A stretch of 64,000 nt of DNA from the NCBI GenBank assembly GCA_964187785.1, contig OZ076409.1, positions 62,126,001 through 62,190,000 of the forward strand, written 5' to 3'. Below are positions 10,296 through 54,329 of this stretch, piece by piece. The DNA is from Amphiscolops sp. MND2022 (lineage: Eukaryota). A program made the translations under genes and the position numbers. The notes under the pieces are model-generated. The model did not search any database. It was not told where the DNA came from and worked only from the letters and a program-made list of their open reading frames with translations. Every line of letters starts with the position of its first letter. Positions within the stretch are counted from its first letter, which is position 1.

Positions 10296-12243
10296 CATTA
10301 CAGTGCATCGAAGCTAAATCGCCACAGACACTGTTCAGTGCGTGTATGTCCTCAGATTCCGCAGACATATCTTAAAGCGTGTAAAATTGGCAATTTAGCA
10401 CTGATGTTGCGGGATCCACGCCACGAAAGTCGGCGTTTTTCGACATCCGAAGGGCATGGGTTTATACGTAAGACGGTTTCATATTGCGGAAACTGGGACC
10501 AAAATTATGCCGACAAATGCCGACAAGATGGCGCCAAATTCGTGGCTGGGATTCCACAAAGTGTATTATAACCAATCAGAGGGCTGTAAATTTTAAATTT
10601 CAGCGTCTTAGTTTCCACTTATGTTTTGATTAGCCGAAATCAAATTTAATAAGACAGAGTGTAAATACAAAGTCAATTACCACAAACAAGTTACAATCAA
10701 TGTCTCCCTTTCCGTAAAACTGTCGGCTTCTCTTCCTTTCATCTTTATATTGGTGATAAATTTATTTCAAGACTCTACTATACTATGGTACTACAATTAT
10801 ACCAACTGCATTTGAATTTGAAAAAAAACGAAAGTTGAAAATGAGTTTGAAAAAAAATGAGAAAGAAAAATTTCTTTCAATACTTCACTATACTCTGGTG
10901 GAACATACTATGACAATGAAACTTTGATTGAAAAAGTCAACTAGAATGCACTTGAAACCATTCAGGCTACTTATACTATACTATATTATACTATAATATA
11001 CACTATACTTTCAGTATTGTAGAAAATATTTATACTGATTGTATAAAATGATATACAATAGTGAAATACATTCATACCAATTGGAATAAATTGTTTTAAA
11101 AAAGAAAAATTGATTTCAAAAATTAGAATGGAAATCGGGAGACTTTGGTTCCAATCGTGGGTCAAATCGTGAAGCTTTTTAGATCAATAAAAGTGAATAT
11201 TTCATTGAAATAGTCAGTTAGAATGCAAATGAAAAGATTGAGGTTACTTGTACTATTCTTACCTATAATATACACCGTACTATATACAATAGTGAAATAC
11301 TACCTTTATACTGGAAAGATTTTTTCTTTAAAAATGAAGGATTTGTTATAATAATTACAGTGGAAATGGGGAGATTTTGGTTCCAATCGTGGGTCCAATC
11401 GTGAAGCATTTTAGCGACCAGAAAGTTTTTGACCAATAACCCCCATCCCTCCTCCCCAATCACGAAAGCACAAACTCAAGGACAAACCTAATCGAAGTGA
11501 TTTCTTTTTGAATTTCCTCAAATAGTGACGGAAACTTATTGACTTAAATTGTTAGCATTACAGCTTATACCATTGTCTCTTTTTCTCTAGTTTTGATTTT
11601 ATTATATTGTTTCAAATATTTCATCGATTCACATGAGGAGGAATTGCAAAGATTTTGGTTCAATTCAATAATGGACCTTTTCTGTTAATTCAAGTAATTC
11701 AATACCCGCAGTAATTCAATGATATTCTGCGGCCACAATTTTTTGAACGGGCATCCCGAAAAGAATACTGACCCCAGTAAGGCTCTCACGGTTCCAGATT
11801 ATGTGCCCATTGCTGTTAACCCCTACACGAAAACCTACGAGGAAGTAATGACCATCAAAACCCGCAAAGATGGTTACCCATGTTAAAGGCAGGGGAAGAA
11901 CTGTCTTGCCGGCAAAAACGGTGGGTCCATCTTTGCACCCGAAACGCTGTCCTTTTGATGCTGCCAATACGGGAATATGCTCAACCCCCCTTTAACTAGA
12001 CTTTTCAGATTTAGAGAAATTTGTAGATTCAGATTTAGATTTTCATTATTATTGAAAAAATGACAAAAAAACTGCAACAAAATACTTTACAAACCCGTTT
12101 CATTCAAGAAGTTTAATGTGAAAATTAATTGAAAAATATACTCAAACGTTCAAAACATGCTTTGAAACATTTAAACATTTGGACGTCTAATGCAAATTTT
12201 TTCAAAGAAGAAAAATAGGAGAAAAATTAGGAGTAAACCTCCT

Positions 12244-13811
12244 CATTACGAGGCCAAAGTGGGAAAAACGTGAACTACAACGATTTCGTTGTTGTAATTT
12301 TTGAATTCTTGAACTAATGGTAATACATGCAAATTTCAAGAATCGAGAAAAACTAAGCGAAAGCAAGTGGGGATTTTTCTCGATTCTTGATTTAAATATA
12401 ATGCATAGCATGCAAGAATCGAGAAAAGTTTCAAGAATCGAGAAAAACAGCTTCTAGCTGTTTTTCTCGATTCTTGAAACTTTCTCGATTCTTCAATTTT
12501 ACGTTGATTCTTAAAATTTATATGAATTCTTGAAAATTGTATGTCAATTCTTCAAAACTTTTCATCAATTCTTGGTCTAATCTAATCACACTAAATGTTA
12601 TTGAGATTTGATTCTCAGTTTTAAAAAAAATTCATTCTCGCTTTTATATAAATATCATCCTTTTTCAAACCAATTTTATTTGAATTCTAAATTTTAAATC
12701 AAAAATTTGTTCAGGTTCGCGTGGTTGGACTTTCTACTGCTTTGGCCAATACCCGGGACTTGGCGGACTGGCTTGGGATCAAAACGCAAGGCCTTTTCAA
12801 CTTCAAGCCATCTGTTCGTTCCGTCCTTCTTGAAATACACATGGCAGGTTTTGCTGGCAGACATTACTGTCCACGAATGGCATCGATGAACAAACCTGCT
12901 TATCAACAAATCAGAACCCATTCCCCCAACAAACCAGTGCAACTGGTTTAGAAGTTTTTGAAAATTCATAGTGTGACTCGAAGAGATAATAACCGTTATT
13001 GTGACAATGTTATTGTCATGTTAATAATGTTATTGTGACAATAACATTATGATGGTCTTAGGCTAATTCTTTTTCGTTCCATGTGGCCAAAATCGATGAA
13101 ATTTGAAAATTCAAAGAGTGACTCGAATTCAAGTTAATTTTGCTTTTGTTGCTCATGGATTAGAAATTTTTAATAATTCATTGAAAGACTCGATGTCAAT
13201 TCAATTTTGCTCTTGTTACTCACGGTTTTTGACAAGTAGTTTTTGACAAGTAACGAAGTAAAAAGCTAACATGAATCTCCTCCTGGTTGAGAAAAAACCT
13301 TTGCTTCAACGAAATAAAAATATTCATTCAAAAATCTATTAAAGTAACCCGAGCAATCATTGTAAACCTTTATTAGAATTTTAACAATGATTCTTCCGTT
13401 GAAATAATCATCACCTGATCAATAAAATTTACTATTATGACATTTGAATAAGAATTCGGGAAAACTTTCTAAGAATTCAGACACTTTGCAAGAATCGATA
13501 AAATTTTCAAGAATCAACAAAATTTTCAAGAATCGACAAAATTTCGAGAATCGACAAACTAATGTTAATACATCATCTCCATGTATTAACACTAGTGTCT
13601 AGATTCTCCAATGATTTTTTCTCGATTCTTGAATTTGGTGGAAATACATGCGCACTATTGTTTTCTCAATTCTTGACTTTTATAGGCGGCATAAACAATT
13701 CCTTTGAAGTTCAATTTTCAAGAATCGAGAAAAAGTTCACTTCGCTGCGTTAAATTACCACTTTTCTCGATTCTTGAAAATTTGAACATTTCCCACTTTG
13801 GCCTCGTAATG
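12244..13811. mobile_element. Non-autonomous CATTAC-family TIR element (1568 bp) nested in element 1
   Basis: Perfect 23-bp TIR CATTACGAGGCCAAAGTGGGAAA; 2-bp TSD CT (12242-43, 13812-13); many subterminal CAAGAATCGAGAAAA motifs in both orientations. Confidence 0.95.
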
Positions 13812-13839
13812 CTCAAGTGAAGTTCTGCAAGCTAAAACC

Positions 13840-14256
13840 GCAATGGAAACCAGGACATTTATTGTAACGCGCAATCATGTGTCTACCCCTTTGAGTGAAA
13901 GTCCTCAATGTATTAGGATTTGTGTATGGTTTCCACGCCATGTGTTTAAAGATATGGTCTTGTTTTCCGCATTGCATTCGTTGAGTAAGTCAGTTTATGC
14001 TCAAAACGGTTGAAACTAGGACGTTTGTGGTAACGCGCAATCATGTGTATGCATACCCCTTTCAGTGAAAGTTCACAATGTATTAAGATATGTGTTTGAT
14101 TTCCACGCCATATGTTTGAGGGAAATATACATGCTTCGCACTTTTCCGCATTTGCTTCTTGCGGCTTGGGAGATTTTTCCAAAACACGTGGAAACCAGGA
14201 CAAACGAAAGTTCGCCGAAACGGAGCCTAATATTGTGTGCTTTTTGGTACCAATCA
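13840..14256. repeat. Internal ~167-170-bp tandem repeat cluster 1 of element 1
   Basis: Repeated TAACGCGCAATCATGTGT...TTCCACGCCAT(G/A)TGTTT...TTTTCCGCATT; ends in TTTTGGTACCAATC. Confidence 0.85.
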
Positions 14257-14399
14257 ATGACATGTAAAACATTTCCTCAGTTCGTAGGAGCATCACAATT
14301 ACCCTAATAACAAAAGTTGAGAATTTATTGAATAGTTTCAAGTTCGGGTAACATATGAATTAGAAGAGAACAGTGAATCAAAACGACAGATGTCTAAAA

Positions 14400-17340
14400 G
14401 TGCCATCACGACAATCGCAGATACACCTTTGGATCCGGGCTGAAGTATGTATGGCTCCGGGTCAATCAGCATTTTTTTCTCGTCAACTTCAGCTACAAAA
14501 TCGATGTTCAAAAATTAGAAACCCCCAGCTGCAAATAGTTTCGCTATTTTGGAATATTGTGATGGTTCAATTCCAAACTCCCGTGTTGCTGATGACTCTC
14601 TTTTCTTTGGTTTCTTCATATCGTTTATTTCCTCTGTGGAACATAAGATTAAGTCTTTTTCGTCCTTCAGAACAAAACAATTGGGGAGCTGTGAATGGGT
14701 GCTCATCAACACGTCAGCTTGTTCATTCTCTAGAAAAGTCCCTCCCAAATTGATAATCAAGTTTTTCACCATGTCATGTGTTAGAATATGTTTGTTCCAG
14801 GAACCCAAGCGACCAAGCAGTGAAAATCTTAACCCACTTAAAGAATTTTCTTGACATCCAATGGCGATAGCTGTCAATGGTGGTTCTTTGCGGCAAATAT
14901 CAAGATACTCAGGTCCTGGGACGTCAATGTCCTTCACTTTTGTTGCACTATGAAAAATACTCATTACGCTGTTCGAGTTTTTTTTTCGAAACTGTCTGAT
15001 AGTTCTTTTTGTTTCTAGTCACATTATGACTACTACTATCATCAAAGTAGACCTCTGTTGGTGCGTTTTGTTCAGGTTCCATGATGTTCCTATAAGTTGG
15101 TTCCGCGTCCAACCCTTTGTCTTCAACTTCAACTGCGACTCTTAAGAATTTCAAGAAAGAAAAGGACGACTTGAGGAATAGTGGATCCTTGTGATAGATT
15201 TTGCCTCCTCCGCGCCTTGTTTTTGTCTGGAATCCACGATTAGCTTGGTGGTTGGATTTTTCAAGGCCTTCGCACGAATGATCAAATGGTCTTTGTATAT
15301 ATACACTCTCAACAAGTTGAGGAAACATCAGCATTTTCAATTTATAAGGTGTCAAACCGGCACACCCGAATATCAAGATTTCAATTTGGTAATAGGCTTC
15401 AGCCCATTTTTTGAATGTTTCATTGTTGAATTCTTCTGCTCACAGACATAAAACACTTTGGTTCAAACTCGATCGCAGGAGTTCGCAAGCACCAAAAGCA
15501 GATTTGATTTTGTCACTGGACACTTTTTGCTTGGAGTTATTTTTAATGAAAAGTTTAGTAAACCAGTTTCTTAGGATATTAACGCAAGGGACATCTGCGC
15601 TTTCTTCACTACCAACAATGATAAGAGACCCCAAACACCATCGTAAAGATCGCTAATTTTACAGTCTTTTGCACGTGCAAGCTCCTCTTTATCGGCAATG
15701 ACCGCTTGAGCACTCCTACCTGCGAGGGATACTGCACCTACAGTACCGATACCTGAACCACTTCTATGAGATATGTTGAACTGAAAGTATGGTTTCTTTG
15801 CATCTTTTCTAGTCAAGTTTTCTTCAAGCTGGCGAACTGCTACATCATGATTAGGAAACTTTTCTCTGATAATTTTCGATGCAATTCTCTGGAGGTCATT
15901 TTCAACATAACGGGTGGTCATTTGCGTGGTATCAGGACAAACTGATTGCTGATTGTTTATTTTCGTAGAAGATGAAGGAAGATTTTTGGGGGTCCGTTCT
16001 GAGGGGTATAATAACATCATTTTGGTAGACCAGTGTCATGATGACATTTTGTTGGTGTGTATTAAAGTTCCGTTATATATAGTGGCATTTTCGATGGGCT
16101 AGTTGACTCAACTGTGATTCCGAGCACTAATTTCATTAAAAACGGCGAATCGCCACTGTATGTCAAAATAACGCCTCGTTTTGATAGTTCCAGGGTCTTC
16201 TTAAAAAATCAACCAGACTCTGGAACTCCAGCTATAGTTGGTCCAAGGTTTTGCTCCAATGCGAATCTTCTATATTTATCCCTGTATGCAGCAAAACAGA
16301 ATACTGAATGTGATGATTGACACTTTACTTTGTCAGTAAGGATCCGGATTGCAATTTGTGTTGTTTCGACACCTTCAATTTCACAACCATCACCCCAAAT
16401 GTCAACTCGTAGGCCATTGAGTTCTTTCGTTCCAATTAGGAAGTATGACACCCTTCCACGCATTTGATAAGGTTGCAGCGAAAACCAGAGAAGTTTCTTA
16501 CTGGCTCACACATTGCGGTAAAGTAGGACTGAATCTCGGATGTTGACTTCTTGACCAATCAAATGCATGGGACTAAATAGTATCCGAGTCCAACAATTGA
16601 GAGTCTTGTTCGAATAACTTTTATAACATCTTCCATGTTACCCGTTTTCGTGACAATAGATAAATGGTGCCTGAACTCATCAGTAGATCCTCTTGTTTCG
16701 AAAAGATCTTCAATTTTTTGATTAGGTTTGGTTCCTTTTTTGTGAATCGTTGATCTTTTCTCTTATTTGCAGAGCTATTGATTTTTTCATGAAACTGTTG
16801 AACCCAACTTCTGACATCAGATTTGTTCTAATTAGATCAGTTTGTTCACGTTTGACTTTTTTTGGCGTCTGATTTTTCTAGCTCCCTTTCTTTTGAGAGA
16901 AAATTGTCACTGACTGGACCTTCAGGGCCACATCTTCAGGAGTCCCATCTGCAGGTGTCGCAAGGGTGTCTTTCATGTAAGGATTGTAATATGGTATGAC
17001 ATCATTAATGAAAAACAAACTGACAAACTCTCTTCTGGCTGAATTCTAAGGAAAGTCTTCAAATCCACGCAGTACAAGTAGTTTTGCCAATTTTGCTGCT
17101 ACAAATACAGGAGCTTTTTTTGGCCTTTAACAGCAATTCTCCGAATGAATTTTTTTGCATTTAATTTTGTGCTAGTCAACATTTCCCCAACAAGTGTCTC
17201 GAACATCCGAAACCTATTCGGTATTTCTTTCCCGGAAACATCGTCAAAAAATCTACAGTTTGTGATGAGTTTTTCATTTTCCACTTTGATAATATTTCTT
17301 TCCCAAATTGACAGGGGAGTCATTTCTAAAGCCGGTTTTT
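14400..17340 (-). pseudogene. Frameshifted RAG1/Transib/CMC-related DDE transposase with C-terminal BRCT-like domain
   Basis: Ordered motifs across broken frames: RVDIWGDGC (D1), LTYSGDSPFL (D2), VCPDTTQMTTR, LTPYKLKMLMFP...HSCEGLEKSN (E). Compare RAG1 KESCDG / GYDEK / DALH / TNYFHK / SEGNESGN. Followed by LSGLRFSLLG...DMVKNLIINLGG (BRCT-like). Boundaries approximate. Confidence 0.72.
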
Positions 17341-17724
17341 AGGTTTACTGCAAAGTGAAATTGTATTGATTGTAGAAAATTTTTCAGACTGACAACCATT
17401 ACACACAATAAAATGAAATGCAATTAGATACACAAAACCACAAGTGAAAATGAGTCCGATTTTGAGTCTCTCCATTAAATTGATGAAGAACGGTTCAAAT
17501 AATTTATTAAACTTGAGTCCATATCACCCAAGGCCATTTTGTCAATAATCACAATCAGATGCAAAAGAGTCCTTCATTATGTCTTCTCACATATAATTAG
17601 AAGGTTTCACCTCTTAGGACTGTTTGTTTTGTCTTTGTAAAGTGTTATCTGATTGAAAACACTCAAAAGGTAGTAAAGAAAAGGAAAAACAAAAACTGTT
17701 TGATTGTTTTTCAAAAACCTTGAC

Positions 17725-18220
17725 TACACCCCTTCGAATGAAATTGAGCAACGTAATAGGATATGTGTTCGGTTTACACGCCTTGTCTTCAAAGTTATGT
17801 CTTTGTTTTCCGCATTGTTTTCTTTGAGCTAGTTATTATTTACTTAAATACCTTGAAAACCAGAACATTTATGGTAACGCGCAATCCGGTGTCTGCATAC
17901 ATACCCCTTCGAGTGAAAGTTCGAGTGAAAGAATGTGTTAAGATTTTGCTTTGAAATCCACGCCATATGTTTGAAAATATGGTCTTGTTTTCCGCATTAG
18001 GTTCTTTGAGCATTATACTGAAAATCCGTGGAAACCGAGACGAATAGAATTGAGCAATGCGTTACGACTTGTGTTTGGATTTCATGCCATGTTTTTTAAG
18101 ATGTGTCCTTGTTTTCCGCATAGCTTTTCGGAGCACTTCATTTATGCTGAAAAACGTTGGAAAACGCGACATGTAAAAATCCCGGAAAAAGCTGAGATGG
18201 TGTCATTTTTGGTACCAATC
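17725..18220. repeat. Internal ~167-170-bp tandem repeat cluster 2 of element 1
   Basis: Same unit as 13840-14256; starts ACACCCCTT, ends TTTTGGTACCAATC. Confidence 0.85.
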
Positions 18221-18447
18221 AGGGGATGACTTATAAAAGACAAGTGCCTTGTTGATCATACGCTTTCAGAATAAAGTAATTCGATAGTCTAAGAATTTCC
18301 TCAAGAATTTTCACGAATGCAAGATCATGGAAGTCATATTGTAATACTTACTAATATTGATGAAAGATGAACTGTTGAACAAACAAAAAATGATCAAACA
18401 CGAATACAAAAAGTTTTTTAAAATTTAAAAGATTGTAAGAGAGTATT

Positions 18448-19850
18448 TCATGCGTCTGAGACAGGTACATTTCGACTCAGATCTCTATATGGGCTGTTTT
18501 TGTAGTGGCCTTGGCTCGTCAAAAACTGAACACGAATCGTGAACATGCCAATTTCTCGCTGATCAAAGAAACTCATTGTCTTTAAAAGAACATCTTCTCC
18601 ATCGCTTGCGTGACATGGGATCAAATCCCAATTTCTTCCAAGTACAGTATCCCATGTACCGTTGCACCATTTATGTCCCTCTTGGTTTGCAACACTATAC
18701 TTGGCAGCCTCTTTGAAATTGCAAGTTTCAAAGCTACAGAGCTTTTTTGTCAAAGAGGTACAGGGAACTAATGTTGCGGTTAAGGAATGCTTCTTTCTTG
18801 AGAGTCCCATCATTCGTTTCATTGCGGAAAACAAAGCATAAGCTTGGTCCATGTTTTCCAGAAGCAAATTAAAATCCATAACATCGCCTTTAGAAGACGT
18901 TGTTGTGACAACCCGAATTGTTGGAAAAAGCACTTCAATGTGAGGATCACTTCTGCTCTACATGAATGCACATGCTTTTCTCTTCTGATAATCATAGTAA
19001 CCTTCTTGCGTTCAAAATCATCATTTGCGTAAAATACAATAAATCCAACCTGAAAATAAAATGATTGAACAAATATTAGGTGGGAAAAAGTCCTTGAAAA
19101 ATTTGGTGCCAAGGGTTATCAAAATTCAAAAGCAAAATTTGCAAACAAAAAAGCAAGAAAGAATACCTTTATGACATTATTTTCACAAGGCGCATATGTT
19201 AATTCAACGTCATCGTCAACATTTGGAGGCAAGGAAAGAAGGTCGACTTGTGGCATCGGTTAGGTGGCGCTTGTCACACGGGCTTGCTTCTTGACGAATG
19301 GGCGATGTACGTCAGATCCTGAATCTTGATCTTGTTCAGTTTCATCATTTTTTGGTTCAGTGTCTCTTACACAAGGTTTATTTCTTAGTTGGCGATACGA
19401 AACATACCCCTCATTGTATTGTCCTCCACGTCGGTTATCAAACATTGTTGACAGGAAGCGTCAATAATTTTTACCCTACCTATCACAACTGACTCACAGC
19501 AATGGTCCTCCCGGCATCTTTCGCTATCTACACAATTACAATCTGGCTGCCAAAAGTAAATTTGATCGTTTCTGACCAGTCGACGAGCGTTGTAGCTAAG
19601 TGGTGTTGACCGTCCATTGTTGCTCACAGTTTCTTCGCGGACAAGATTGTGGGATTTTCTAATTTTCCAGTGATTTTTGTCAGGTCTGTATACTTCGGGA
19701 ACAGTGATATATTCTTTTCTATTGTAACACCAATCGAACCATTTAATTCTTACACACCAATCGCTCACAAAAGAAATAATTTTCGCTGATTCTCAAATTG
19801 ATGTCGCAGGATCCAAGATTTACACAACTTCATTTTCATAGAGAGATTGT
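18448..19850 (-). pseudogene. Element-borne gene: N-terminal Tudor/chromo-barrel-like region plus C-terminal WD-x-x-LG-x-x-WD domain of unknown function
   Basis: Translation LYENEVV*ILDPATSI*ESAKIISFVSDWCVRIKWFDW; probable intron ~19050-19170; C-terminal LVPCTS...WDTVLGRNWD. Homologue at 46969-48835. Confidence 0.55.
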
Positions 19851-20184
19851 AGAAGCATTTATATTTTAAAGCTCGAAACTAATAGAATGTGTAGACCCCT
19901 TATGTGGTGACTGTTGATGGGATGAGCGTTAAAGAAGACGATAACGAGATTGGTTGCAACCCAAATTAATTACAACTAGTCGTCACTTTTTTACCAAGCA
20001 TGTGCACTAATAAAAGTAGTTGCAAATTGGAGACTATAGCATCATTCCGAAGTAACGCTTTTCACATGCCTCATTTAGGATTGAGGTTTTCAGTTGCACA
20101 GCCGGATATGGCACTACAAATTACCATTTACCAGATATTATCGTATTCCGTATCAACAAATATTCGCAATCTACAATCATTATC

Positions 20185-22827: not shown

Positions 22828-23396
22828 CGTTGAAAGGGAATCACAAACTTTTAGACATTTGTGGCATTGGTTCATTGGTTTTAGTGTACGTGATTGTTTA
22901 AAATGTTGTTACTTAGTTTGCACTGAAACTATTTTGAGATTAAAATGCTGACGAAAGCTTGAACCTAATTTTAAACCATTTCAAAGTAGTTTTTGTAACG
23001 TTTGCACCGCAATGCAAGAATTAGGTTTGATTTGAAGAATTCATTTACTTTGTTATCATAAGTCAAAATTTGAATGGAACAAATTTTCCAATAAAATTCA
23101 CACCCAAAATTACATCGGAAGCCCCTTGATAATTTGAGGTGAAAGAAAACGTACTTCAAAGTTTTACAAAACGTCACAAGTTCAATTGTAAGTCCAAAAA
23201 ATAGGTTGCTCGAATATTTTTATTCAAATAGATTCAAGTATAGAAAACTTTTTTTCCGACAGTGGGTCGTGTTGTGATGTTTCAATTCGTTACTAACGAT
23301 GATGTACTTATTAAAAAGTCGTTTCTTGTCATATCAATAATCACACATTGCTAATTCTTATCGGAGATTTTCAAAAGTTTATATATGTGTCTAATT

Positions 23397-23645
23397 CAAC
23401 GGCGGCATAATGGAGATGGTGGCGCAGTTGATAATTCCCGGTTGTCAGGAGTGAAGCTTGATACGTTGTCTACCACCGGTTCGATTTCGCCTATAAACTT
23501 CAAGGTGATTTGATGCAGACTACTCTGTATTCCCTCCATTTTGATTGAGCAAAAGACGATTGTGTTTCTCTTCACAATGATCGAAAGAGCCCACATGAAA
23601 TGATCACTGCGCCACTGCATCTCTTTTGATGTCCTTTTTTCCAAT
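23397..23645 (+). repeat. tRNA-like/Pol III-box module, copy 1
   Basis: GATGGTGGCGCAGTTG (A-box-like) ... GGTTCGATTTC (B-box-like); paralogous to 24121-24350. Confidence 0.55.
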
Positions 23646-24120: not shown

Positions 24121-24350
24121 GCAACGGCATAATGGGGATGGTGGCGCAGCTGATAATTCCCGTGGGTATGTAGTGAAGCTTGATACCTTGTCACCACCGG
24201 TTCGATCCCCGCCAACACGCTATTGGGAGACTCGATGCAGACTGCTCTGTATTCCCTCCACTGTATTGATTCGGCAAAAGGTGTCAATCCACTTCACAAT
24301 AATGGAAGAATCACTGCGCCACTGCATCTCTTGTGATGTCTTTTTTTTAT
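24121..24350 (+). repeat. tRNA-like/Pol III-box module, copy 2
   Basis: GGGGATGGTGGCGCAGCTG ... CCGGTTCGATCCCCGCCA; second A-box-like TGGCGCAGTGA on the minus strand at ~24311-24322. Confidence 0.6.
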
Positions 24351-42059: not shown

Positions 42060-44600
42060 TTGAACGAGGGTTCTTCTTTTTGGCACTTTGTGCAAACCTA
42101 TGACAGTCTGTGATGGTCGCGGGTGAACATACGTGATGGCTTGGGTTCGTCAAGATCAGGTCTTCGCCGCAAAAAAGTGAGGCTCTCCTCAGAAATTGCT
42201 TCTTTCGAGACCCTCACGCCATTCTGGTCCATAACCCAGCTCCTTCTTCTGAAGCAAGGCTTGGGGCTTGGTTTGTAGTTGAGGAGACGTCTAAACGACC
42301 TTCTACCATGGTGACAATTGCACGTTTCGGCAGTAGCATCGAGCCCAAAATCACCAGTCAAGTGCCTGATTGAACGTTCTCGTAACAGTGTCTGGTCTAT
42401 GACAAGGTCTGTGTGGTAGTCACAAACTATTTCCGATTCTTTGATTAAGGCAGTTGTGACCAAACCTCGGCTGACAGAACCATTCTCGAACATTATTTTT
42501 TCCCAAATTTGGAAACTCTTACAGAAGTACTCATGTAATTTTGAGGTGTTCACAAAAGTTGATTTCAGCTCGGAAAAACATGCTCATGCCTATTTCGAGA
42601 TCCGTCTCAATTACTTCACGTACTGTACGTCTAGTGCTTCGTCTAACATCGGTATTTGAAGGCTTCCACGCTAACATCGTGTTGTATACAATTTTTGCAT
42701 GATCAGACCAACAACGACTGCGGACTAATTTCGCTACGCAATCTCTGGACTGTTGAGTTGGTCCATGGAAGTAAATAATAATTTTCTGGACACGCAAACT
42801 TTGTAGCGGAAGTGTTCCTTCACACGTCCTCCGAGATTCTTTGCTGCTGTCGCATCTTCACAAACTCTTCTCATGATTTCTTGGCGGCATTGGGCCGGCG
42901 TCGGAATAGTGTCGACGGGATTATTTGGAGGAAGAAATTTTTTTTCATCTGAAAAAAACCAAAAAAAACTAGAGTTTTGTAGGATTTTTGTTCAAAGAAT
43001 ACCTTTAAAGTCCAAATTACTCAAAAATATTCGTAGACGAATGAAAAGCAAAAGGATCGAAAGAAAAATTTAGCTGTGCTCATGGCAGGGACCCAATTCA
43101 ATCCAAAAACGTATTTTAGTGCGCACAATGTATACCAAAATATTTAATTTTTTGAGTTGATACTGGCAAAACTATCACTGAAGTAGAACAGTTGCTTTTT
43201 TGAAGTGGGGGACATCGAAGTCATCTCTACTTGCTTCAACTGTCTTTGAGCTGCTGAATCGGAAACATGGGTGTTGGTTGGTGGAGTTTTTGGTTGCCTG
43301 CGAGATCACTTCCACTGTTGAACTTACAGTTGCATCATTTTCGAGAAGTGTTGGAGTTGGCTCGTAGACAAGGCTTCTTTTAGCTTCCTGTGGGCTGCGT
43401 TCATTTTGTTTTGAAAGTTCTCACCAGTTCTGGCAACATTCAATTGTTTTTTTACTTGTGAATTAAGGGTGAAAATTGTGAATTGTGTTTCTTCTTGAGG
43501 GTCCTGTGAGAAAATTGTCTTCGAAAACATCGAATGCACGTGTCCAAAATTGGCACACATGTTTGAAACTGACTGTATATCATAACTTTTTTCTCGAACT
43601 CGTTAAACTTTAGAGCCCTCTTAAATTTGTACTTGTTTCCATCTGTCACAGCACAAACATATTGACCATTTTCTTTCTTGACGAAGTTCACAAAATCATA
43701 CACTATGAACTTCCTGAGAAGTCGGGCAGGGTAATTGTTGATGACACACCAGATGATCTTGAGCAACTGGAACATAATCATGGCTGCTTCTTTTCGAGGA
43801 ACCCGGTCAATTTGCACCAGATGCTCGACACGAGAGCGTCCTTTTGATCATTTCGACATGACGCTCAACAGTTCGCCACTATCACTTGCATCCCGGGCCG
43901 CCGCTGGCAGGTGTTCGAGGGGAGAAGCCATTACGATACATATGCCGCAAAACTGGAATTTATCATCAAGTGTAAAGTGTATTTTCCTTAAAACGAGAGC
44001 GAACCGTATTCTAATTAAACAGTGCATCGTGTTCATCGCGGATTTTGATGCACAGTGTAATCAAAAATTGCGGATTGTGATCATTGAGCGTAATTAGAGA
44101 CAAGTGGAAACCAGTAAAGAATTTTGGTACACACCGTGAGTGAAAATGACTCTAATCAATGCATCCATTCGTATGTGAAGAGGAAACCAGTCAAAGTACG
44201 TAATTGTAGAGAGTGTAAACTAGTCATTTACTGTATGTTGATCAATACACGTAACGCCAAATGACACAGTGTGAGGAGCAAAACATGTAACGCGTTTTTG
44301 AAATAATGACGAGTTTTTATTAGCTGTTAATCGAACTAGCAAGATCTTGCTAGTCCGTTGCGGCATATGTATCGTGATGACATAGTTGCTCCCGTTGGAA
44401 TTGACCACGTCGATTTGCTCAATAGTGCGGCCAAGTTCGTCAATGGCGCATGATTCGGATGTGGTGTTGCATGGGGTGATTCAATCCTTCCGGGCGTTGG
44501 CACTAGAAATTTCAGGCTGCTCATGATGGCCTGGGCGTTTCCCTGATGGAGTTTGATAACCTTAAAGTACAATAATCATGTTTCTTAGTACAATGACTAA
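42060..44600 (-). pseudogene. Element-2 homologue of the recombinase-like + SET gene; disrupted and MITE-interrupted
   Basis: SET: QIWEKI..SRGLVTTALIKESEIVCDYH...LDATAETCNCHHGRRSFRRLLNY (42250-42520). Upstream frames 43324-43817 are only weakly recombinase-like. 5' extent uncertain; may include the exon at 45655-46160. Confidence 0.62.
43929..44379. mobile_element. 451-bp CATTAC-family MITE
   Basis: TIR CAT(T/C)ACGATACATATGCCGCAA; flanks GC/AC (2-bp TSD, one mismatch). Removal rejoins minus-strand frames VNSNGSNY+ASPLEHLP. Confidence 0.9.
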
Positions 44601-45648
44601 ACATAAAACTGAATTGTTTCGAAAGATTTTTAATGGAAAAAGTTCGATCTTTGACCTGGAGCTTCTTGAGAACGGAAAAACTTCTCTCCATGGCGCAGCT
44701 AGTTGGGAGACAACTTTGTAGTTTCTCAACAAGGCCGAGTGAAACCCCATCTTTCGAATAATTGATGTTCTGCGCAGTATTCTAAATGTATATACCTTAA
44801 TTGTACCAAAAATCAAAAATTGACCTACCTGAGAATTCTGCAAAAATTAACCCTCTTTTGGCCGTATTGACTTTATTGACATTATGGGCGCCCTCGTTTT
44901 GAAGTGGTAATTCGACTTGAATAACAAGCCTAATTGATTCTTTGAAAATGATGATATTTTAAATAGGAGAAAGCAGATATATCCGAAGAAATCCAGAAAA
45001 ATTGAATGCATTCAATCATCTAAAAAATCCAATGTTTATCCTACACTGATTTTTCAGCTCAACAGTTTACTCAGCTGAGCTTGAAAACATCCGGTTTTTG
45101 CAAAAACAGTTTCGATGTTCTTTGAGTGATTTCAAAATTTCGGTCCCTGGCGTGAGATCCATTCCAAGGCATCAATTTTTTCAAAACAATCAATTAGACT
45201 TTCATTTATACACACAATGAGAATTGGAGTGGAATCAGAATAAAATAGTTTTTCTGTCTAGGAACACTGCAGCAGATGACGCAGCAAAACATGATTTATT
45301 AACGTCTTTACGAATTTGATGATCTTTATGTGAAATCGGAAAATTATTTCAAACGAATTATAACGGCAGGATCAGATTCGACGTCAAGTTTTGGACAAAA
45401 ATTAGTTCAGAAAGTATCATTCAACTTTGTCAAAACTGAGAGAAACATACAATTTGATCAAAGTTTGTCCAGGTTTACAAAATTGTGAAAATTTTTTTGA
45501 CTAACAATTATTTTGTTATTCTAGCATTTTTCATTTCGTTCGCAATTCTGAGCAATGGACTTGCAATGCGTTGGACTGCTACCCAGTTATGTAGAGCACT
45601 TTGTTCCGTAAGACGTATCTGACATCAGACGACAGTCAATTATTTAAC

Positions 45649-46161
45649 TTACTCACATTGAGTGTCAATACCTTGGTTGATTGACGATTTTACGAAGCCT
45701 GATCGTTTCACGTCAGGAACAACGTGCTTTACGTTACTGGAACTATCAACAGAAGACAAATAGCCCAGAGGAAAAAGCATAACATGTCCATGGAAACATT
45801 TTAAAGTACCAAAAAATGTTATACCTGTTTGATTCTCAGCGATTATTGCTTGTATTGATGAGTTCGATTGAACGAGGTCATATATATCAGCCTCATCGTG
45901 AAGATGAAATATTTGACTTGCCAGAACACGAGCAGGCGCGAAATCATGAATAACTTCTTGTACACTCCCATCATCATTCAAGTGTCGGGCAACAATTTGC
46001 TCGACAGCAATGTTGACAGAAGTTTGGGAAGATGTGTTTTGAGAAGAAGATGCGTTCAGCATTTTGGAAAATTTCGATTTGATTCTCGAATTTAAGAGAT
46101 CAGTATACTCTAGCAGTAAAACCAGCCTTACAAGTGGTGAAATTCGTCCTTGTTGCGACAA
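45649..46161 (-). CDS. Probable exon of an element-2 gene, unknown function
   Basis: 170-aa open frame ending at a GTGAGT donor-like site (~45658); no motif recognised. Confidence 0.4.
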   Translation of the reverse strand: MSQQGRISPLVRLVLLLEYTDLLNSRIKSKFSKMLNASSSQNTSSQTSVNIAVEQIVARHLNDDGSVQEVIHDFAPARVLASQIFHLHDEADIYDLVQSNSSIQAIIAENQTGITFFGTLKCFHGHVMLFPLGYLSSVDSSSNVKHVVPDVKRSGFVKSSINQGIDTQCE

Positions 46162-46419
46162 TATAGTTGAGAAGTTTGAATAAAATTGAGGCTCTGAACT
46201 TGACGAGGAATTGATTTCGAATTATGAATTTAAAAACCTAATGTCTATTTGGGCTTACGAAGTGTCAAAAGACTATGAAAATTTTGTGGTAATCTGTGTA
46301 ATCCAAAAACTGGTCATTCAGCGTGAGTCAGTCAAGACGGTCTATGCCTGGACGGTGTAGATTTGATGACAAAATCGTTCAATGTCCATTCTAGCATCAT
46401 TATCCAATCACTGAATAAT

Positions 46420-46765
46420 TATCATCTATATCCGAATGTCTAAGTTTCAACCTTATTGATTCAAACTAACGCCCAGTCAAAATACTCTGGAACAACTTGA
46501 CCCAAGTTAGTTTTGTGGTTTGAATTTCAACCAAGAATAATTATTGAATGAAATGTGCCTTGTAATGATGATCATCATCATCATAGGCGGCATCATCCAT
46601 TCCTAATAATTGAATAAGAATGAATAGCATCATTACATAGACTAGTTTCCCATTATGCATTTCATCTGGTTATCCGAAAATCTAATATTTGACCTAATTG
46701 ATTCAATTTAACGCCCCGTCAAAATACTTCGGAATTTTATTCATTTTAGTTTTGTGGTTTAATTT
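46420..46765. repeat. Direct duplication, ~240-bp offset
   Basis: TATCCGAA..TCTAA..TT..ACCT.ATTGATTCAA..TAACGCCC.GTCAAAATACT at ~46428 and ~46670. Confidence 0.8.
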
Positions 46766-46968
46766 GTTTTTGTGGCTGTGACAAAATCAAGGTGAAGTCA
46801 TTCAAAACATTCAAGTTTGAATTGAAGTCAGTTCAAGTTGAAGTTATTTTCTAACTTAGTTTGCTTGAAGCAACATAATATTAGTCTCATCTCACTGCAA
46901 AGACACCGAATCTAGTCCTCTTAAACCTATTACTAGTACCGAGTCTTGAACCCAGTGCCTAGCAGACA

Positions 46969-48835
46969 TTGCAGACATTCTCCAAAAATTTCAAAACCGG
47001 AGAACTCCTGCAAGGTTTCGAGGAAGAATGTGGACTTTGGCGATCAGCTCACGTCACCGAATTTCACCAAACTCATGATGTTTTAAACTTTGTTTCCCTT
47101 TCGGTACTCATTTTAAGATCTGGAGTTTTTAAAAGTTGGTCTTTCATAATATTCCCACTTCCCAATAATATTCCCACTTCCCAAATTTCTGTTTTCCACC
47201 GTGGCAAACAGTGTACCACGTTACATTGTTTGCCCCAGATTAGATGTAAAATTGTTCGATATTTCTACTGTGGAAATACCGTTCTACAAAGACGTCTACA
47301 ATAGTGACTCTAAAAGAGACAACATAGCACGCGGAAAGAAAGCAAATGAACAAATCTCATTGGCTGATCAAGGTCTCACGCGCTCTTTTCATTGGTCAAG
47401 AGCGAATGCCAAAACATCTTTTTTTATTTTTTTTTGAAGTTTTGACCCACTCACAATTTTTTGATCTCAGAATAATTTTGACGGAAAATTTTTCCCAAGA
47501 ACTTCGAAAGTGACAATACATTTTGTTCCCGTAAAACTTAGCAGTACGAACTTGTTTCAAGTGGCTATATTTCGTATCCTATTACATGAATTTCCGGAAT
47601 GTCTGATTTGGACAAAAAATTTCTCTAAATTTTTGAGCAAAGGTTTTTTTGAACTTCTTTTCCGAATAAACATATTTAAAAACTAGATAAAAATCTAAGA
47701 AATGTTCACTTTCATCATTTTTCAGAAATCGCTGCTGTTTCGATTTCGAGATTCGCATTTCGAGATTTGCATTCTGTTGCTTTTAGAAGTGTCACTACTG
47801 TACATGAGTTTTGTTCAATAAGTTACGTTTTAAAGTGTTTTTTATTTCCAGGCGAAAGTCAAATGGTTGGATTACATCTCAAAACATGCAACAGGCGTCA
47901 TTCAAGCACCCCCAAAACTCCATGACTTTCCCGCGAAACGGCCCGTCCGACAAAACGAAACGCCAATTCCAAGCTACAGCTGTAGCGTTGAACTGACACT
48001 GAGCCTTGATGTTCTGGGCTACATGAAAGAAAAACGTGTTAGGAACGACAAATTTCAATATACACTAGCCCAGGCTGAAGACGGCGTCCGAAACATAGGG
48101 GACATCGGAAAAAGTTTCGTAATGAAAAACCATCCCATCCGTGAAGAGATGTTGATATCGCCAGTGGTGACACCAATAGAGGAAAACCTGTTTCCGATGA
48201 ACAACTGGAAAAAGTGAATTTGGTCACCATCAAATATTACCAATTTCGATGCGGATCGTCACAAAAGGCACCATCAGTATTCAAAAAAGTCACATTCGAA
48301 GACCCGAGGACTCCTTGGATGAATTTGACGACCCGGAAGAACACTTTATTTCAAGTTGCAACAAAAACACCGTTATGGTGTCAGCCGAATAGAGGCCACG
48401 ATCCCCGCCAAGAGGCCCAAAAAGAAGACTAAAATTGATCTAAAGCAGACGTTAGTGTAATGGGCCTATTCTAACATGAAAAACTTGCTGATGAATTCCC
48501 TCAGTGGAAGCAGCGAAAACAAAGACATTAAGTAAGAATTTGCCCCTTGGACTGCTGCGACGATTCTTGCGTTTGGTATCATAAATGGACCAATGACATT
48601 CCCCATAAAAGAAGACGGCCCTTTTTCGACATCAGCATAGGACGACATACTGGGCAACCAATGGGACAAAGTTGCGGATGGAACCGCTGTCGTTCGGTCT
48701 CTGAAGTTTAAAGTTGACAAAACATCAACTCTAATTTTCAACTGAAACATTTATGTTCACGCGACACTCGTATGCAATGTGAATTTCAAGACAGTGAAAA
48801 ATTATGGGTTTCACGTTGAAGAACTTTGCTCCTAA
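46969..48835 (+). pseudogene. Element-2 homologue of the Tudor-like + WD-x-x-LG-x-x-WD gene
   Basis: N-terminal FKTGELLQGFEEECGLWRSAHV; C-terminal EFAPWTAAT...*DDILGNQWD (48535-48670), matching LVPCTS...WDTVLGRNWD of element 1. Confidence 0.55.
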
Positions 48836-49449
48836 TTTCATATTCATGTATCATGTAACTTTTATTCAAATGGTGTGATCATCAAATGCTTACGATCAAG
48901 ATTGTTGCATTTATTATGAAAGTAAAATAAATTAAAATTCAATATTGGAATTTTCAGGTTAGCGTGTTTCTTGATTAGAAGTCATTGGAGAACAAAATTG
49001 TACCTGTAGGGGCACTTTGTTACAATGCGCTTACCCCAGGGACCAAAATTAGCTGCAACTGACATCAAAAACTGACTGACAAACGTTGATAGAATGTTTG
49101 ATGTGATTGCGCTCTCGACATGGACCAAACTTCAGGATTTTGTTTGAGAGTAAAGAAACCAGTTATCGTAAACGTTTTCTTTACTCTCAACCAAGTTTCT
49201 GAATTTTGGTCTCCATCGTATGAGGGACTTATTTTATTTAGGTTAGGACGACCAAAGTTCGGCGCTTGAAAAGTGTTCGAACCAACTTATATCCTGTTCC
49301 TTAGTAACTGATTCAGATTCAATATAGAAGAAATGATCGTTTTGAAGGGGGGGGGGGTAAACCACATTTTGTTTGAAAATATACTATACTTAAAGTTTTT
49401 ATTAAGGTGACTAAACTTTAAGATAGCTAAAGTCTACCGAAAGGAAACA

Positions 49450-50000
49450 AAACTATCAATATGTTACCTAACCTTTTGTTGAAATTTCTAAAAAGAGAGA
49501 GGATTCAACGGTCAACCGTTTTTGCTTGATTTCACGTATTGATAAATTTAGAAGCTAAATTTTTCCTCTCGAAGCTAAAAATACGGACCAGCTACTTCTG
49601 CTTTCAGAAGTGTATTGTAACAGTGGTGAGAAAGTTTCACCATTGAACTGTCGATCATCAATTTTCGAATTCATGTTGGCGTTCATAGTTACCAACACGT
49701 CAATGATATTGCTGTCAAAAATACAAATTCTGACTGCCAATTTTCAGAACACTTCATTTGATTCATTCATAGCAGCCAATGATTGCAATGAAAACGAACG
49801 TTTATTCCCATTTCAACGAACGATTATAAGTAAGCTCAGGATTTATATGTCTATCCAAATTCCATGTATTACTCCATATTTCGCCTTAAATAGTTTTGTA
49901 TCCATATTGATAAAAAAATTCCATATTTAGCTGGATTGTAATATTTCTGAGAAATGATGATAAGCTTTTCTGAGAAGCGACCGATTAACAATCACTAATT
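49450..50000 (-). pseudogene. Possible Ulp1/C48 SUMO-protease relic
   Basis: Ordered fragments in broken frames: GIWID, HCNHWLL, ICIFDSN, NQAKTVDR* (GAC CGT TGA is two changes from D-C-G). Spacing is imperfect. Confidence 0.33.
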
Positions 50001-51439
50001 TCAGTATTTCTCAGAAATATATACTGTTTTATTTTTACATATTCCAACGCTTCTTCCGTATTTCACTTTTAATATTGATTAGTCATCAACCAAACGGTAA
50101 AACATTCGTCATTTTGCTTGAAGTCGCACATTATTGAGCATAAAAAGTTTTGGTCTCGAGAATTTAGTCAATTGAAAAAAGCGTTTTGCATCCGTGTTTC
50201 GGTGTTTGTTTTTCATATTTTATAGCATGTTTCTGCGTACTAAATTTGATATAAAGCCAACGCCTACTCACAAGGGAAATTCGTCTCTTCGAGAAGATCT
50301 GATTACCGCCTACTTAATTTGAATTTTACCGCAATCAGATTTGAAGTACGTCAAAGCAGGCGCCTACTGACCAAATAAAATAGTACGGACACAGTTCCCT
50401 CTCAATGATGAATCGCCGCATTGGCCAAATAAGGTAGCTTTCTCTTAGGAAGGGAACCGTTCGTACCTTATAAGCAAAGAGAGCTCTAAGTTGAAAGTTT
50501 CGTTTCATTATAAGGTAAGACCTATTGGCATCTTTTTTGAAGCCATGAGTAGCTGTAACAAAACTTCAAATTTGATGAATCGTAAACAAAGGAATGAAAC
50601 AGTTCGTTCAGTTTCAGAGTGAACTTCACTGACTTTTGAAAATCTTTCGTTTACAAGGCGCGATGGCAATTAATTTTAAACTATCGGCTTTTTAATCTTG
50701 TCGTTAACTTCCTTCATTTCGTACAAAGCGTATAAGAGAGTTTTATTAGTTTGTTTTATTAGACAAACTAGTATTAGTTATTTTCATTAGAATAGTTTCG
50801 TACATTTGATATTTATAACTCTACAGAGGGATGTAAAAACTGTGTATTGAAAACATCGACAATACAAAACAGTATTTCTTGAAGAAGTTATATATTTTAA
50901 CGTCGATATTTTTTGATACATTGTTTTTTTACATCCCTGTTTAGAGTTATAAAACTTTGTGATTGGGAGAGGGGAGAGGGGGAATTTCACGAAAGCCCAG
51001 TTCTCTTTTTTGTTTTATTGGGGGTTTGAATAAATGGGTTGTATTGATGGGGAGTTTTTATTTCATATTAGGATGATAAGTTTTCCAAATTGTTTTTGGA
51101 GAAATTTTGGCTGATGCTCACGGCAGGCGTCAAAAAACGGATCAGTGTAGAGATCATGGATCACGACCGGGATCAAACTTTTAAAGTTTACCAAATAATC
51201 TATGGGTTTCTTTCTGTTAATTCAGCCAGCAAGTTCCAATCTCTATCGAAGTGTTTCCGCCCAGTGTTCAGAAAATTCTTCAAACGATTTCTGAAATACA
51301 TCTTTCGCTATTACCAGCAGAAAACAAAAGGTACGTTTGATGGGGAAAAGTAGTTTGGATCTGTTCAGCTCCAAGAATTTTTGCCCCTCTTCAAAAAGTC
51401 TCTCATTGTTCTTCTTCTCATCAATTTTTTGTGACATAC

Positions 51440-53310
51440 GTTGTCACCTTGAAGGAATTCAGTGACGCAGTGATCCTTCCAAGTAAGATCTTCTTCTCAG
51501 TTGGAACCCAAAGAATACATATAGATGTCTTTTGCTCATTTAAGATGAAAGGGATTTTCTCAGTAATTTGTTTTGATTCACCACAAAGAGTTACGATACA
51601 GAAGAAAGTCACTCATTGGAGTTTCTCTCGGTTCTTTTCTGTTTTCCTCCACAGTCAGTTTGTTTTTAAAAATTAGTGTAAATTTAATAACAAGAAAACT
51701 TGATTACAGACCAGAAACCATCTATTTGAGTATCTTCAAGGTGACAGTTCGGAATTGAAATACAAACCTTCTTAACACTATTTTTGCGTAATCAATCAAT
51801 ATAAAAAGGTAATCAGGCTGGTCTAAAGTTGTCAGGGAAATTTACATTGAAAAACGTTGAAACAGAAAAGAGCATTCCTCTTATCAAAAAGAGAAGCAGC
51901 GACGCAGTGATTTCCATGTGGGCTATTCCTATCATTGGAAAGTGGAACAAGACATATGTCTTTTGCTGAATCAATATGTAGGGATTTTTAGCTGAATCAA
52001 TACGGAGGGAATTTGTCTCAGTGGTTTGCTTTGAATCACCACCAGACCTTGGTAATGAATCATTGTCTGAAAAATAACTGCAAGACTTTTTGAATTGATA
52101 ATTTATTGGCGTCCATTCGCAATACCATCTATTTATTTCATTCTATTCATTATATCACAATGATTTGAACTTCAAATTTTGAAGGAATGAAGTTTGTTGT
52201 TTGTATCATATAGTGATGAACGAAAAAGTCTTACTCAAGTGCATTTGGAAGAAAATGAATAATATTGCAATCATTACTTACCTAGGTCTTGTCAGCACAC
52301 AAATTTTTGGCAAAAAAGGTCAGTTCTTGGAGTTCCTCTCATCAAAATGGATGATTAGTTGACGTAGTGATCCTTCCATGTGGGATCTTCGGGGGATTGA
52401 GACCGATGTCTTTTGCTGAATCAATATGAAAGAGTTCTTCGCCAAAGTCGTATACATCGATTCATTTAGCCAGTGTGATAATGTCTGGGATCGATCTTGT
52501 GGTACTAACAGTTTCATCTAGCTTCGCATACCCACGGATTTATCGACGGCGTCATCATCCCCACTTTGCCGTTGCTTTGGACACATTCAAAACATTTTTA
52601 AAACATACATATGACGTTATTCAATTCTTTCATGAATTTATGAAAAGACTAACCATTCATTCATTTGTAAAGATTCAAACTTTTCTTTTGAACAAATGAT
52701 TTTACTTCTTTAAAACAACATTCATTTATTTAACTAACACTTGTAGTTAGTGTAGGGGGGCGAGACAAAAAACAAATACCACTATATCGACATAAAGGCG
52801 GGTGTGAGGAAAAAAAACCAATCAATAAAGAAAAATTATGGAATACTGAAACTTCGTATATACGTTTGGTTGAGAAACAAACGACAAAGATCATTATGAC
52901 GTTATGATAGGGGGTGTTAATTGTTAGTAGGAACTAGCAACTACTAGTTATAAAAACAAGTAAAAAATAAAAACTAACAAACATTGGGAAACAGTGTTTA
53001 TCTAAGGGGGAAAACCACATGGTCCGAACTTCGTTTTTTAGTTCAATGATTCATGATTGGTATTTCATAAACTATTGTTTTCGGTTTGATAAAGTTTCAA
53101 TTTTGTCTAGACTCTTTGTAACAACTTTTTTTGATATTGCTCACGACAGGGATTAAATTTCAACATTGTAAATGCCCTGGCTCAAAAACCCCAGACCAGA
53201 ACAAATAAATTGATCAATTCGTTAACCAATAATTCCGGTGACTGTGCTTTGCTCACGACAGGGACCAAAACAAAACTAATTGAGCAACTATTGATGAGGG
53301 CTGCTTTGAA
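51440..53310. repeat. Right subterminal block of element 2: partial B copies (51440-51620, 51880-52045), then B-C-A
   Basis: GACG(C/T)AGTGAT...GATGTCTTTTGCT repeated three times; matches to 38270-39270. Confidence 0.8.
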
Positions 53311-54329
53311 ATTACATTTTCTCAATATAAGAAACCCGGTGACAGATTGTTATAATGCTACTAATTAGTTGCTACAAGTTACTTTTATTTGCACGTGAAA
53401 TGCATGATGAAGTACACGTATACATGTGAGCAACTTGCATTCAATGCAGGTAATACGTACTATGCACGGTAGAGTTTAGTATTGATAACTAATTATTTGA
53501 TGAACCACTGCTTAATTTGACTGTTTTACGATGTGGTCGTATGAAGTGGAATTAAACTGAACATTGAGTTTTGAATACATATAAACATGGCGTAAGTTAG
53601 TCAAACTTTAACCACATTCCCTTTTTGCAAATTGCAGATCGCTATACTTGCAATAAGTCGAAGTTAGTCGAAGTTTTGACTGAATTACGAAAAAGTGTAT
53701 TTTTGGACTATATTCCACTTTTCACTAATTACGTGCCTTAACTAGTTTACACTATTTTCCATTATAGGACCAAGCTACACCGTCCAGGCATAGACCGCCT
53801 TGACTAACTTACGCTGAATGACCATTTTACGAATTACACAGATTACTCTGCGTGACTACAATCCATTTTACCGGGATGTGTCTCGTAATGTCTGCCTGAC
53901 TATCTGCGGTCTATTGTCCACTGAACTGGGCCAATATTTGGTTTTTCCTTGGTATGGTGGTACCTGTAAAAGATCAAAATGTTATTGGGTTCCCTTATCA
54001 TAATATTGGGCTAATTGCACTGTGATTTTCAATTTTTTTCGAGTTTTGGTGATTTTATTGGACCTTTGGTTGAGGAATATCTTGTAATTCCATCAGTGTA
54101 TGCGGTAATTGACTACATTATCTTAAATTTTTATGGCACCAGGCTGACCATACTCTGGGCTATAAAGGTGCATGGTTCCAGGCTGACCATAGACTGAACC
54201 ATATATGGTCCAGAATATGATCAGGCTGGAAGCATAACACTTTATGGTCCAGAGTATGATCAGCCTGGAATCATACTGTGAGTATGAAGGCAGAGTATGA
54301 TTGACCTGTTTTTGTATGGGAGGGAAACC

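Follow-up and report, generated by a model that had tools for sequence, protein, structure and literature searches.

The closest described systems to the elements considered here are RAG1 with its RAG1-like (RAGL) transposons such as ProtoRAG, the Transib elements, and the CMCT superfamily (EnSpm/CACTA, Mirage, Chapaev, Plavaka, ESTA, and Lanisha). Transib elements are small, with one gene and CAC ends. Target site duplications (TSDs) of RAG and Transib measure 5 bp (PMC9435367; available part of PMC10629977). In the available part of PMC12730594, the CMCT clade is given CA..TG termini and TSDs of 2–5 bp, all CMCT and RAG1 lineages share the motifs C(2)C and H(3-4)H, and ESTA is recognised via its similarity to RAG1. 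The same part describes TET/JBP captured by fungal ESTA, EnSpm, and Plavaka elements, a SET methyltransferase in oomycete HarbingerS and MuDR elements, and an anti-silencing factor in plant VANDAL elements (VANC). Here we analysed a 64,000-nucleotide stretch of Amphiscolops sp. MND2022 (contig OZ076409.1, positions 62,126,001 to 62,190,000, of the 1.07-Gb assembly GCA_964187785.1), called the window below and numbered from its first letter. The window holds two dead copies, E1 (10296–25423) and E2 (37570–53890), of two different families of DNA transposons with terminal inverted repeats (TIRs). Relatives elsewhere in the genome encode a transposase whose modelled fold is closest to RAG1/ProtoRAG among solved structures, and they carry SET and JmjC genes that resemble histone-modifying enzymes. 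Because the window copies are too decayed for direct classification, with no transposase named by Pfam among 225 window open reading frames (ORFs) and only sub-threshold BRCT and RING hints inside E1 and E2, the argument below leans on these relatives.

E1, E2, and their relatives almost certainly form a multi-family clade of recently active cut-and-paste TIR DNA transposons of 18–30 kb. The exact E2 TIR had 636 matches in the genome and its reversed control 0, and the exact E1 TIR had 447 compared with 5 for its control. A genome-wide search for end pairs with 2-bp duplications had been proposed in an earlier note on this DNA, and it returned what that note expected: for ten convergent TIR pairs per family, picked among the matches listed, a 2-bp TSD flanked 10/10 E2-family pairs and 9/10 E1-family pairs (19/20 in all), with varied dinucleotides and none longer. 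Nine of the E2-type pairs span 26.9–30.0 kb and one spans 12.2 kb, and a transposase-bearing E1-type pair spans 17.8 kb. The ends of both families begin CATTAC, and the E1-type end CATTACAGTG resembles CACAGTG only internally. Near-identical copies are numerous and dispersed in the genome; four E2-type ones are ~98% identical over 10–12 kb, and the clade was therefore mobile recently. In young E2-type copies of ~27.7 kb (e.g., L032:5334-5425) a second right-end TIR occurs inside the element, placed between the pre-SET and SET exons and ~17.7 kb away from the left end, and 12.2-kb TIR pairs recur in the E2 family; alternative mobile units are possible.

The transposase was found through a protein encoded in the segment that is missing from E2, which had 150 scored matches in the genome, one 622-codon open frame being shared by 76 of those 150 listed (counted by eye), and through the broken ORF of E1, which as a query led to further families with open frames of 1017–1250 codons. 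Sequence and profile searches of the PDB returned nothing significant, and RAG1 clusters in the ESM Atlas scored just 0.76, enough for a lead. Folded as a single sequence, the protein was modelled at a mean predicted local distance difference test score (pLDDT) of 31, and an intact relative folded from a 62-row alignment reached a pLDDT of 87 and a predicted template modelling score of 0.83. The top Foldseek match of this model was RAG1 (6oes; E 3.5e-7, 13% identity), and 46 matches had E <= 0.001, all of them RAG1, BbRAG1L, or HzTransib among the matches listed. A wide structure search with VIA ranked RAG1 first (Z 18.9, root-mean-square deviation (rmsd) 3.9, 401 residues aligned), followed by BbRAG1L (Z 18.2, rmsd 4.8, 405 aligned), HzTransib (Z 13.6, rmsd 6.2, 321 aligned), the P element (Z 12.7, rmsd 5.0, 296 aligned), and Hermes (Z 8.8). 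A Pfam RAG1 (PF12940) search of the genome was blank, and so were its controls.

Within the transposase alignment, three acidic residues (numbered on L034:7062-8819:-) are conserved in nearly all rows covering their columns, namely D146 (25/25), D226 (48/48), and E521 (47/48), and a DxxH motif is near-invariant; from this conservation and from secondary structure we infer that D146, D226, and E521 make up the catalytic triad. The C(2)C (CxxC) motif occurs between D226 and DxxH in 2/47 rows, and anywhere between the D and the E in 2/34, at different places. H(3-4)H before the E is found in 0/48 rows, and the site that we take to be equivalent to the RAG1 motif position reads TPYKLKL. C-terminal to the core lies a BRCT-like domain, detected as BRCT_2 in 18 of the 62 members (best E 1.6e-6, below the curated cut-off). 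Homologues numbered 19 in a word-indexed search and 422 clusters at E <= 0.001 in a full HMMER search, and all are unnamed assembly or metagenome proteins; the lineage may have been overlooked for this reason. Relatives were confirmed in none of 46 candidates from prokaryote genomes and in none of 36 candidates from viral contigs.

Compared with RAG1/RAGL, the elements share the fold over ~400 residues, a DDE core with DxxH and an ExxExxN-type final motif, CA..TG ends, and a dedicated second gene. They differ in having a 2-bp TSD where RAG1/RAGL has 5 bp (available part of PMC10629977), no CAC heptamer, and no C(2)C/H(3-4)H; identity is 10–13%, the C-terminus is BRCT-like, and the elements reach 18–30 kb with SET and JmjC. 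A RAG2-like gene was looked for as kelch or PHD domains in ORF scans and none was found; the scans took in the young E2-type copy to the right of its left 4.6 kb and the E1-type copy between its two ends, and short exons may escape them. Transib has the same fold and likewise short TIRs, but it has a 5-bp TSD (available part of PMC10629977) and zinc motifs (available part of PMC12730594), whereas the elements described here have several genes, CAT ends, and a 2-bp TSD. With CMCT the likenesses are CA..TG termini, a TSD of 2–5 bp, large size, accessory ORFs, and the capture of epigenetic enzymes (available part of PMC12730594), and the differences are the absent shared zinc motifs, the BRCT-like domain, and the SET and JmjC cargo.

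The earlier note had compared the ends with EnSpm/Mirage elements. Its reading of the termini and the 2-bp TSD stood, and both fall within the CMCT range of 2–5 bp (available part of PMC12730594), so that the elements could be divergent members of the catalogued CMCT superfamily (EnSpm, Mirage, Chapaev, ESTA, Lanisha), perhaps already in Repbase or Dfam. ESTA, too, is recognised by RAG1 similarity, and RAG1 and Transib may top the fold lists only for want of solved structures of other CMCT enzymes in them; no EnSpm or Mirage chain appears in the Foldseek or VIA lists, whose ranks depend on which structures are solved. We nevertheless judge CMCT membership unlikely. The scarcity of C(2)C and absence of H(3-4)H from the alignment do not fit a superfamily in which, in the available part of PMC12730594, all lineages have both motifs. 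None of the 62 members matched a transposase Pfam family, none of 20 homologue clusters looked up had an NCBI/UniRef source or an informative name, and the TSD is not fixed as TA as in ESTA, TA accounting for 3/19 TSDs and the remainder varying. By these features the elements, though RAG/Transib-like, appear to fall outside Transib, RAGL and, by motif, CMCT, and the EnSpm/Mirage likeness of the ends does not carry over to the transposase, whose RAG1-like fold and missing zinc motifs set it apart from a typical enzyme of those groups.

Having compared the transposase with described systems, we then explored the cargo. The earlier note had proposed a lineage of large multi-gene transposons sharing chromatin-type genes, with a SET-domain gene in both elements, and this was borne out. 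The SET gene is common to both families (23% identity, E 2e-19), matches Pfam SET at 42–44 bits, above the cut-off, and has SETD8 as its top PDB matches (E 1.5e-5 and 4.7e-6), so that by closest similarity it would be a SETD8/KMT5A-like methyltransferase. It reads FDY where wild-type SETD8 has YDY, with Phe at the Tyr334 position, and the Y334F change in SETD8 reportedly permits dimethylation. Pre-SET region and SET form one 796-aa ORF (P0202) in an E2-type relative, and the pre-SET regions of the two families gave no significant alignment with each other. A tyrosine-recombinase-like identity considered for the pre-SET domain found no support in Pfam, PDB, or PHROGs and was dropped. In one E2-type subfamily an expanding in-frame trinucleotide tract coding for poly-Thr/Ser closes the SET ORF (L011:8638-8800; L017:8271-8700). 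Related SET ORFs also form another family in multiple copies (e.g., C10:35462961, C7:6904782), with 50–54% identity and frames of <=680 codons and with no transposase family tied to it.

The JmjC gene is multi-exon, with C2H2-type fingers upstream; it is present in both families and gone from both window copies. Its top match is PHF8 (E 1.1e-11), identity between families is 46–55%, and the HxD...H iron-binding pattern is intact in both, with Pfam JmjC matches on single exons below the cut-off; by closest similarity the product would be a PHF8/KDM7-like, demethylase-like protein. One young copy has a 2.25-kb tandem duplication of JmjC exons (L031:4775-10000 with L032:1-74). The transposase is physically linked with JmjC, SET, and ORF2, the partner gene described below. 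Of the 150 listed transposase matches, 124 have JmjC within 25 kb, at several family-specific distances (chance ~0.7% each), and SET lies within 15 kb of 75/85 transposase matches, a comparison made with the 85 of 150 matches closest to E1 and with 111 of 150 SET matches, the other 39, from a more distant SET family, having been set aside. The transposases of the cargo-sharing families are 33% identical and fall on opposite sides of the deepest split in a quick tree of 42 of the 62 rows, midpoint-rooted with no outgroup.

ORF2 stands head to head with the SET gene in both E1 and E2, and this ORF2/SET block is inverted between the two elements; outside the block, gene order differs between families. 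The inverted common layout that the earlier note had seen thus stands for the SET/ORF2 pair, and the wider likeness is partly a product of a ~10-kb deletion in E2. Between families ORF2 shows 22% identity (E 6e-8). The note's Tudor-like label was not confirmed: the N-terminus of ORF2 is Trp-rich, in which it may resemble a Tudor domain, and ORF2 had no Pfam, PDB-profile, or Atlas match and belongs to no recognised family. Among 16 metagenome loci with related transposases (1.1–7.4 kb), ORF2 lies directly upstream and divergent in 4/16 with a profile that excludes those loci, and in 5 with a profile that includes them; the five ORF2-bearing loci come from two related record series and may represent one host. 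In one metagenome contig a PLAC8-family ORF (L062:5886-6887, minus strand), either cargo or host flank, closely follows a related transposase on the downstream side. A complex prediction of the transposase core with an ORF2 relative, run without alignments and with chains from different families, gave no answer.

At the DNA level, the families are clearly linked only by a subterminal module of ~270 bp. The earlier note had called it tRNA-like, and what remains of this is A-box- and B-box-like motifs seen by eye: ARAGORN at default settings made no call, Rfam had no tRNA match, and folding was no better than in shuffles (z -0.14 to -0.32). Relaxed ARAGORN gave 32 scattered low-grade calls, one of which overlaps the module tail (52301–52390) and none the A/B-box head. 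Considered as a free short interspersed element (SINE), the module had 23 of 40 best matches near a transposase or TIR among the matches listed. The ubiquitin/SUMO tools also proposed in the note came down to a RING-like ORF below threshold (E 0.0026), in the E2 family only, with the motif scan and Pfam negative for a SUMO protease.

The explanation that we favour, and as a whole hold with moderate confidence, runs in four steps. First, the transposase would pair two CATTAC ends through its putative D146/D226/E521 triad, excise the element in RAG/Transib style, and attack the target with a stagger of 2 nt rather than 5, without the usual zinc site. Second, the PHF8/KDM7-like JmjC protein would strip repressive histone methyl marks off the element, so that expression is kept. 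Third, the SETD8-like SET protein would methylate H4K20 and, given its Phe at the Tyr334 position, may dimethylate it, and SET together with the BRCT-like domain of the transposase would recruit end-joining repair to the break left by excision. Fourth, ORF2 would be a dedicated accessory factor tying the transposase to chromatin, like RAG2 or TnpA elsewhere. As background to the third step, H4K20me1 is a mark that PHF8 removes, and end joining is promoted by 53BP1, which binds H4K20me2 (available part of PMC3597678). Of the four steps, the first has strong backing. Judging from the sequences, the cargo probably acts on chromatin for the benefit of the element; the specific H4K20 and repair step is tentative, and we would lean against it. 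That the cargo counters silencing, as the earlier note had thought possible, is likewise what we infer from these genes.

Several observations weigh against this explanation. The triad rests on conservation and secondary structure rather than on residue-level superposition, and ORF2 is without a recognised fold. The similarity of SET to SETD8 is only ~25 bits, because of which its substrate identity is a guess, and in E2-type SET proteins NY replaces the canonical NH motif. The SET/JmjC cargo is shown for the Amphiscolops genome only, and neither gene was seen in the 16 short metagenome loci. Signs of selection are uneven as well: E2-family pairwise ratios of nonsynonymous to synonymous rates (dN/dS), which come from small counts and single, partly dead copies with post-insertion decay, were 0.30–0.40 for the transposase, 0.33–0.77 for ORF2, and 0.29–0.73 for the second JmjC exon, and the adverse values are 0.63–5.7 for the first JmjC exon and 0.72–1.13 for SET in 4/5 comparisons (the fifth gave 3.7 on 1 synonymous change). 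These comparisons gave no sign of recent purifying selection on SET.

A SET ratio near 1 is also what would be seen if SET, JmjC, and RING were passengers, host genes captured once in the manner of Pack-type elements and of no benefit to their carrier, and such a reading could draw as well on the two window copies, both of which spread or survived without JmjC, and on the short metagenome loci without SET or JmjC. We consider it distinctly improbable, because neutral passengers would decay over the distance between these families, in which two thirds of transposase residues differ and the DNA is unalignable; open frames and catalytic motifs are nonetheless kept across them, and JmjC accompanies the transposase at the 124 of 150 matches noted above, in several families.

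The cargo could instead be functional in something other than anti-silencing, such as repair or cell-cycle chromatin, non-histone targets (the transposase, ORF2, or host silencing proteins), or self-silencing to limit harm. The closest solved relatives of the writer and of the eraser both act on H4K20 (available part of PMC3597678), and such a pair would fit a timed on/off cycle equally well; the BRCT-like domain hints at damage signalling. This reading seems to us unlikely, if a little less so than that of passengers. PHF8/KDM7 enzymes also remove H3K9me1/2 and H3K27me2. In the VANDAL, TET/JBP, and HarbingerS systems, epigenetic enzymes carried by transposons are interpreted as anti-silencing (available part of PMC12730594). 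Like the elements described here, HarbingerS and MuDR elements with SET and VANDAL elements with VANC are DNA transposons carrying a SET gene or an anti-silencing factor; their transposases, however, belong to unrelated superfamilies, and no writer-plus-eraser pair is mentioned for them in the available part of PMC12730594.

Returning to the window, E1 is a decayed, JmjC-deleted copy of the ~17.8-kb family, as judged from its TIRs and the family TIR pairs and TSDs; its insertion split a single unit of a 171-bp satellite, and it shares 85–90% DNA identity with a relative at G000:C6:30.19 Mb. Its left TIR, CATTACAGTGCATC (10296–10309, plus strand), and right TIR, CAATAGAGTGCATC (25410–25423, minus strand), match at 12/14 bases, with 2 mismatches. 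The earlier note had described two elements of 15–16 kb with short TIRs and 2-bp flanking duplications; this proved exact for E2 (TC/TC) and inexact for E1, whose flanks, TT/AT, fit a TSD of TT with one later change. From left to right, E1 holds a transposase pseudogene (14422–17338, minus strand) with a RAG1/Transib-like DDE core and BRCT-like C-terminus, recovered by tblastn with an intact 1017-aa ORF as 6 pieces in three frames, with frameshifts and stops; the two-exon ORF2 (18451–19939, minus strand), the gene first labelled Tudor-like; the 5' exons of the SET gene with the unrecognised pre-SET domain (20234–21321, plus strand); the broken SETD8/KMT5A-like SET-domain exon (21787–22912, plus strand); and two copies of the subterminal module (23366–23655, with the tRNA-like A/B-box head, and 24091–24380, both plus strand). 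Internal tandem repeats of ~166 bp (13834–14160, 17726–18170, 21309–21621) lie between and inside the E1 genes, and the intact relative has them too.

E2 is an internally deleted copy of the 27–30 kb family, bounded by its TSD and by TIRs of the form CATTACGAGACACAT(G/C)CCGGTA that match at 22/23 bases. Older E2-type copies reveal the deletion, at ~42266, of ~10 kb holding the transposase and JmjC. What is left comprises a subterminal module near the left end (38562–38851, minus strand), a RING-like ORF fragment below the Pfam cut-off with a counterpart in a young copy (39528–39755, plus strand), a broken SET-domain exon cut by the deletion (42266–42958, minus strand), a pre-SET exon interrupted by a nested element (43153–44558, minus strand), an unrecognised ORF kept in E2-family copies (45769–46239, minus strand), ORF2, head to head with the SET gene (47746–48679, plus strand), and a subterminal module near the right end (52317–52606, minus strand). 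The earlier note had mentioned three smaller relatives, and those found here are a nested non-autonomous relative in E1 (12244–13811) with perfect 23-bp TIRs starting CATTACGAGG and a TSD of CT, a nested 451-bp non-autonomous relative in E2 (43929–44379) with TIRs matching at 22/23 and imperfect GC/AC flanks, and the left end of a further E2-family copy (62906–63079, plus strand), 85% identical over 175 bp to that at 37570. The strong DNA divergence of E1 from E2 was likewise upheld, with similarity almost confined to the ~270-bp module, at about 70–80%. The direct tblastx comparison that the note had suggested yielded only weak pieces from SET and the module (e.g., a 19-aa SET piece, E 4e-4), and homology became clear only via intact relatives.

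Around the elements, the 171-bp satellite forms an array with higher-order structure (1–10295, 25424–25666, 26919–27668), and a second satellite with a ~185-bp unit lies at 33455–34241 and 63262–63985, with a long array also at G000:C1:48.70 Mb. An eEF2 gene is represented at 28221–30889 (plus strand) by its 3' two thirds, in open exons separated by introns, and no N-terminal GTPase motifs were found within the window; this piece is either a duplicate that was truncated or part of a gene whose introns are very long and filled with repeats. A long terminal repeat (LTR) retroelement remnant at 57182–60511 (plus strand) has protease-like, integrase, and DUF5641 matches, 76-bp direct repeats 99% identical to each other, and no reverse transcriptase match. 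Long palindromes or inverted repeats lie at 12412–12494, 49123–49211, 54132–54275, and 55932–56350, with Rfam microRNA matches below gathering scores.

No description of such elements was found in searches of the full-text literature, which leave out most subscription journals and Repbase Reports, and their novelty is judged against that literature. SET capture by transposons is already known (available part of PMC12730594), and the elements most likely represent a RAG1/Transib-like lineage that lacks the zinc motifs and has captured histone enzymes, which it would use against silencing and perhaps to steer repair. It is conceivable, although we rather doubt it, that the clade is an undescribed sister lineage of RAG1/Transib at superfamily rank, in which the zinc module would have been lost, the stagger changed from 5 to 2, and a BRCT domain gained, with the transposase and a chromatin-reading ORF2 as RAG2 analogue, a write-and-erase histone kit (possibly for H4K20), and modules with RNA polymerase III boxes as chromatin barriers. 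A natural, apparently intact transposase of the RAG1 fold without zinc motifs and with a different stagger makes testable both the role of the zinc domain in RAG/Transib catalysis and the determinant of TSD length, and elements that move 28 kb are candidate large-cargo gene-transfer tools. A eukaryotic transposon clade that keeps histone methyltransferase-like and demethylase-like genes over deep divergence would also make the counter-silencing of transposons by their own enzymes directly assayable.

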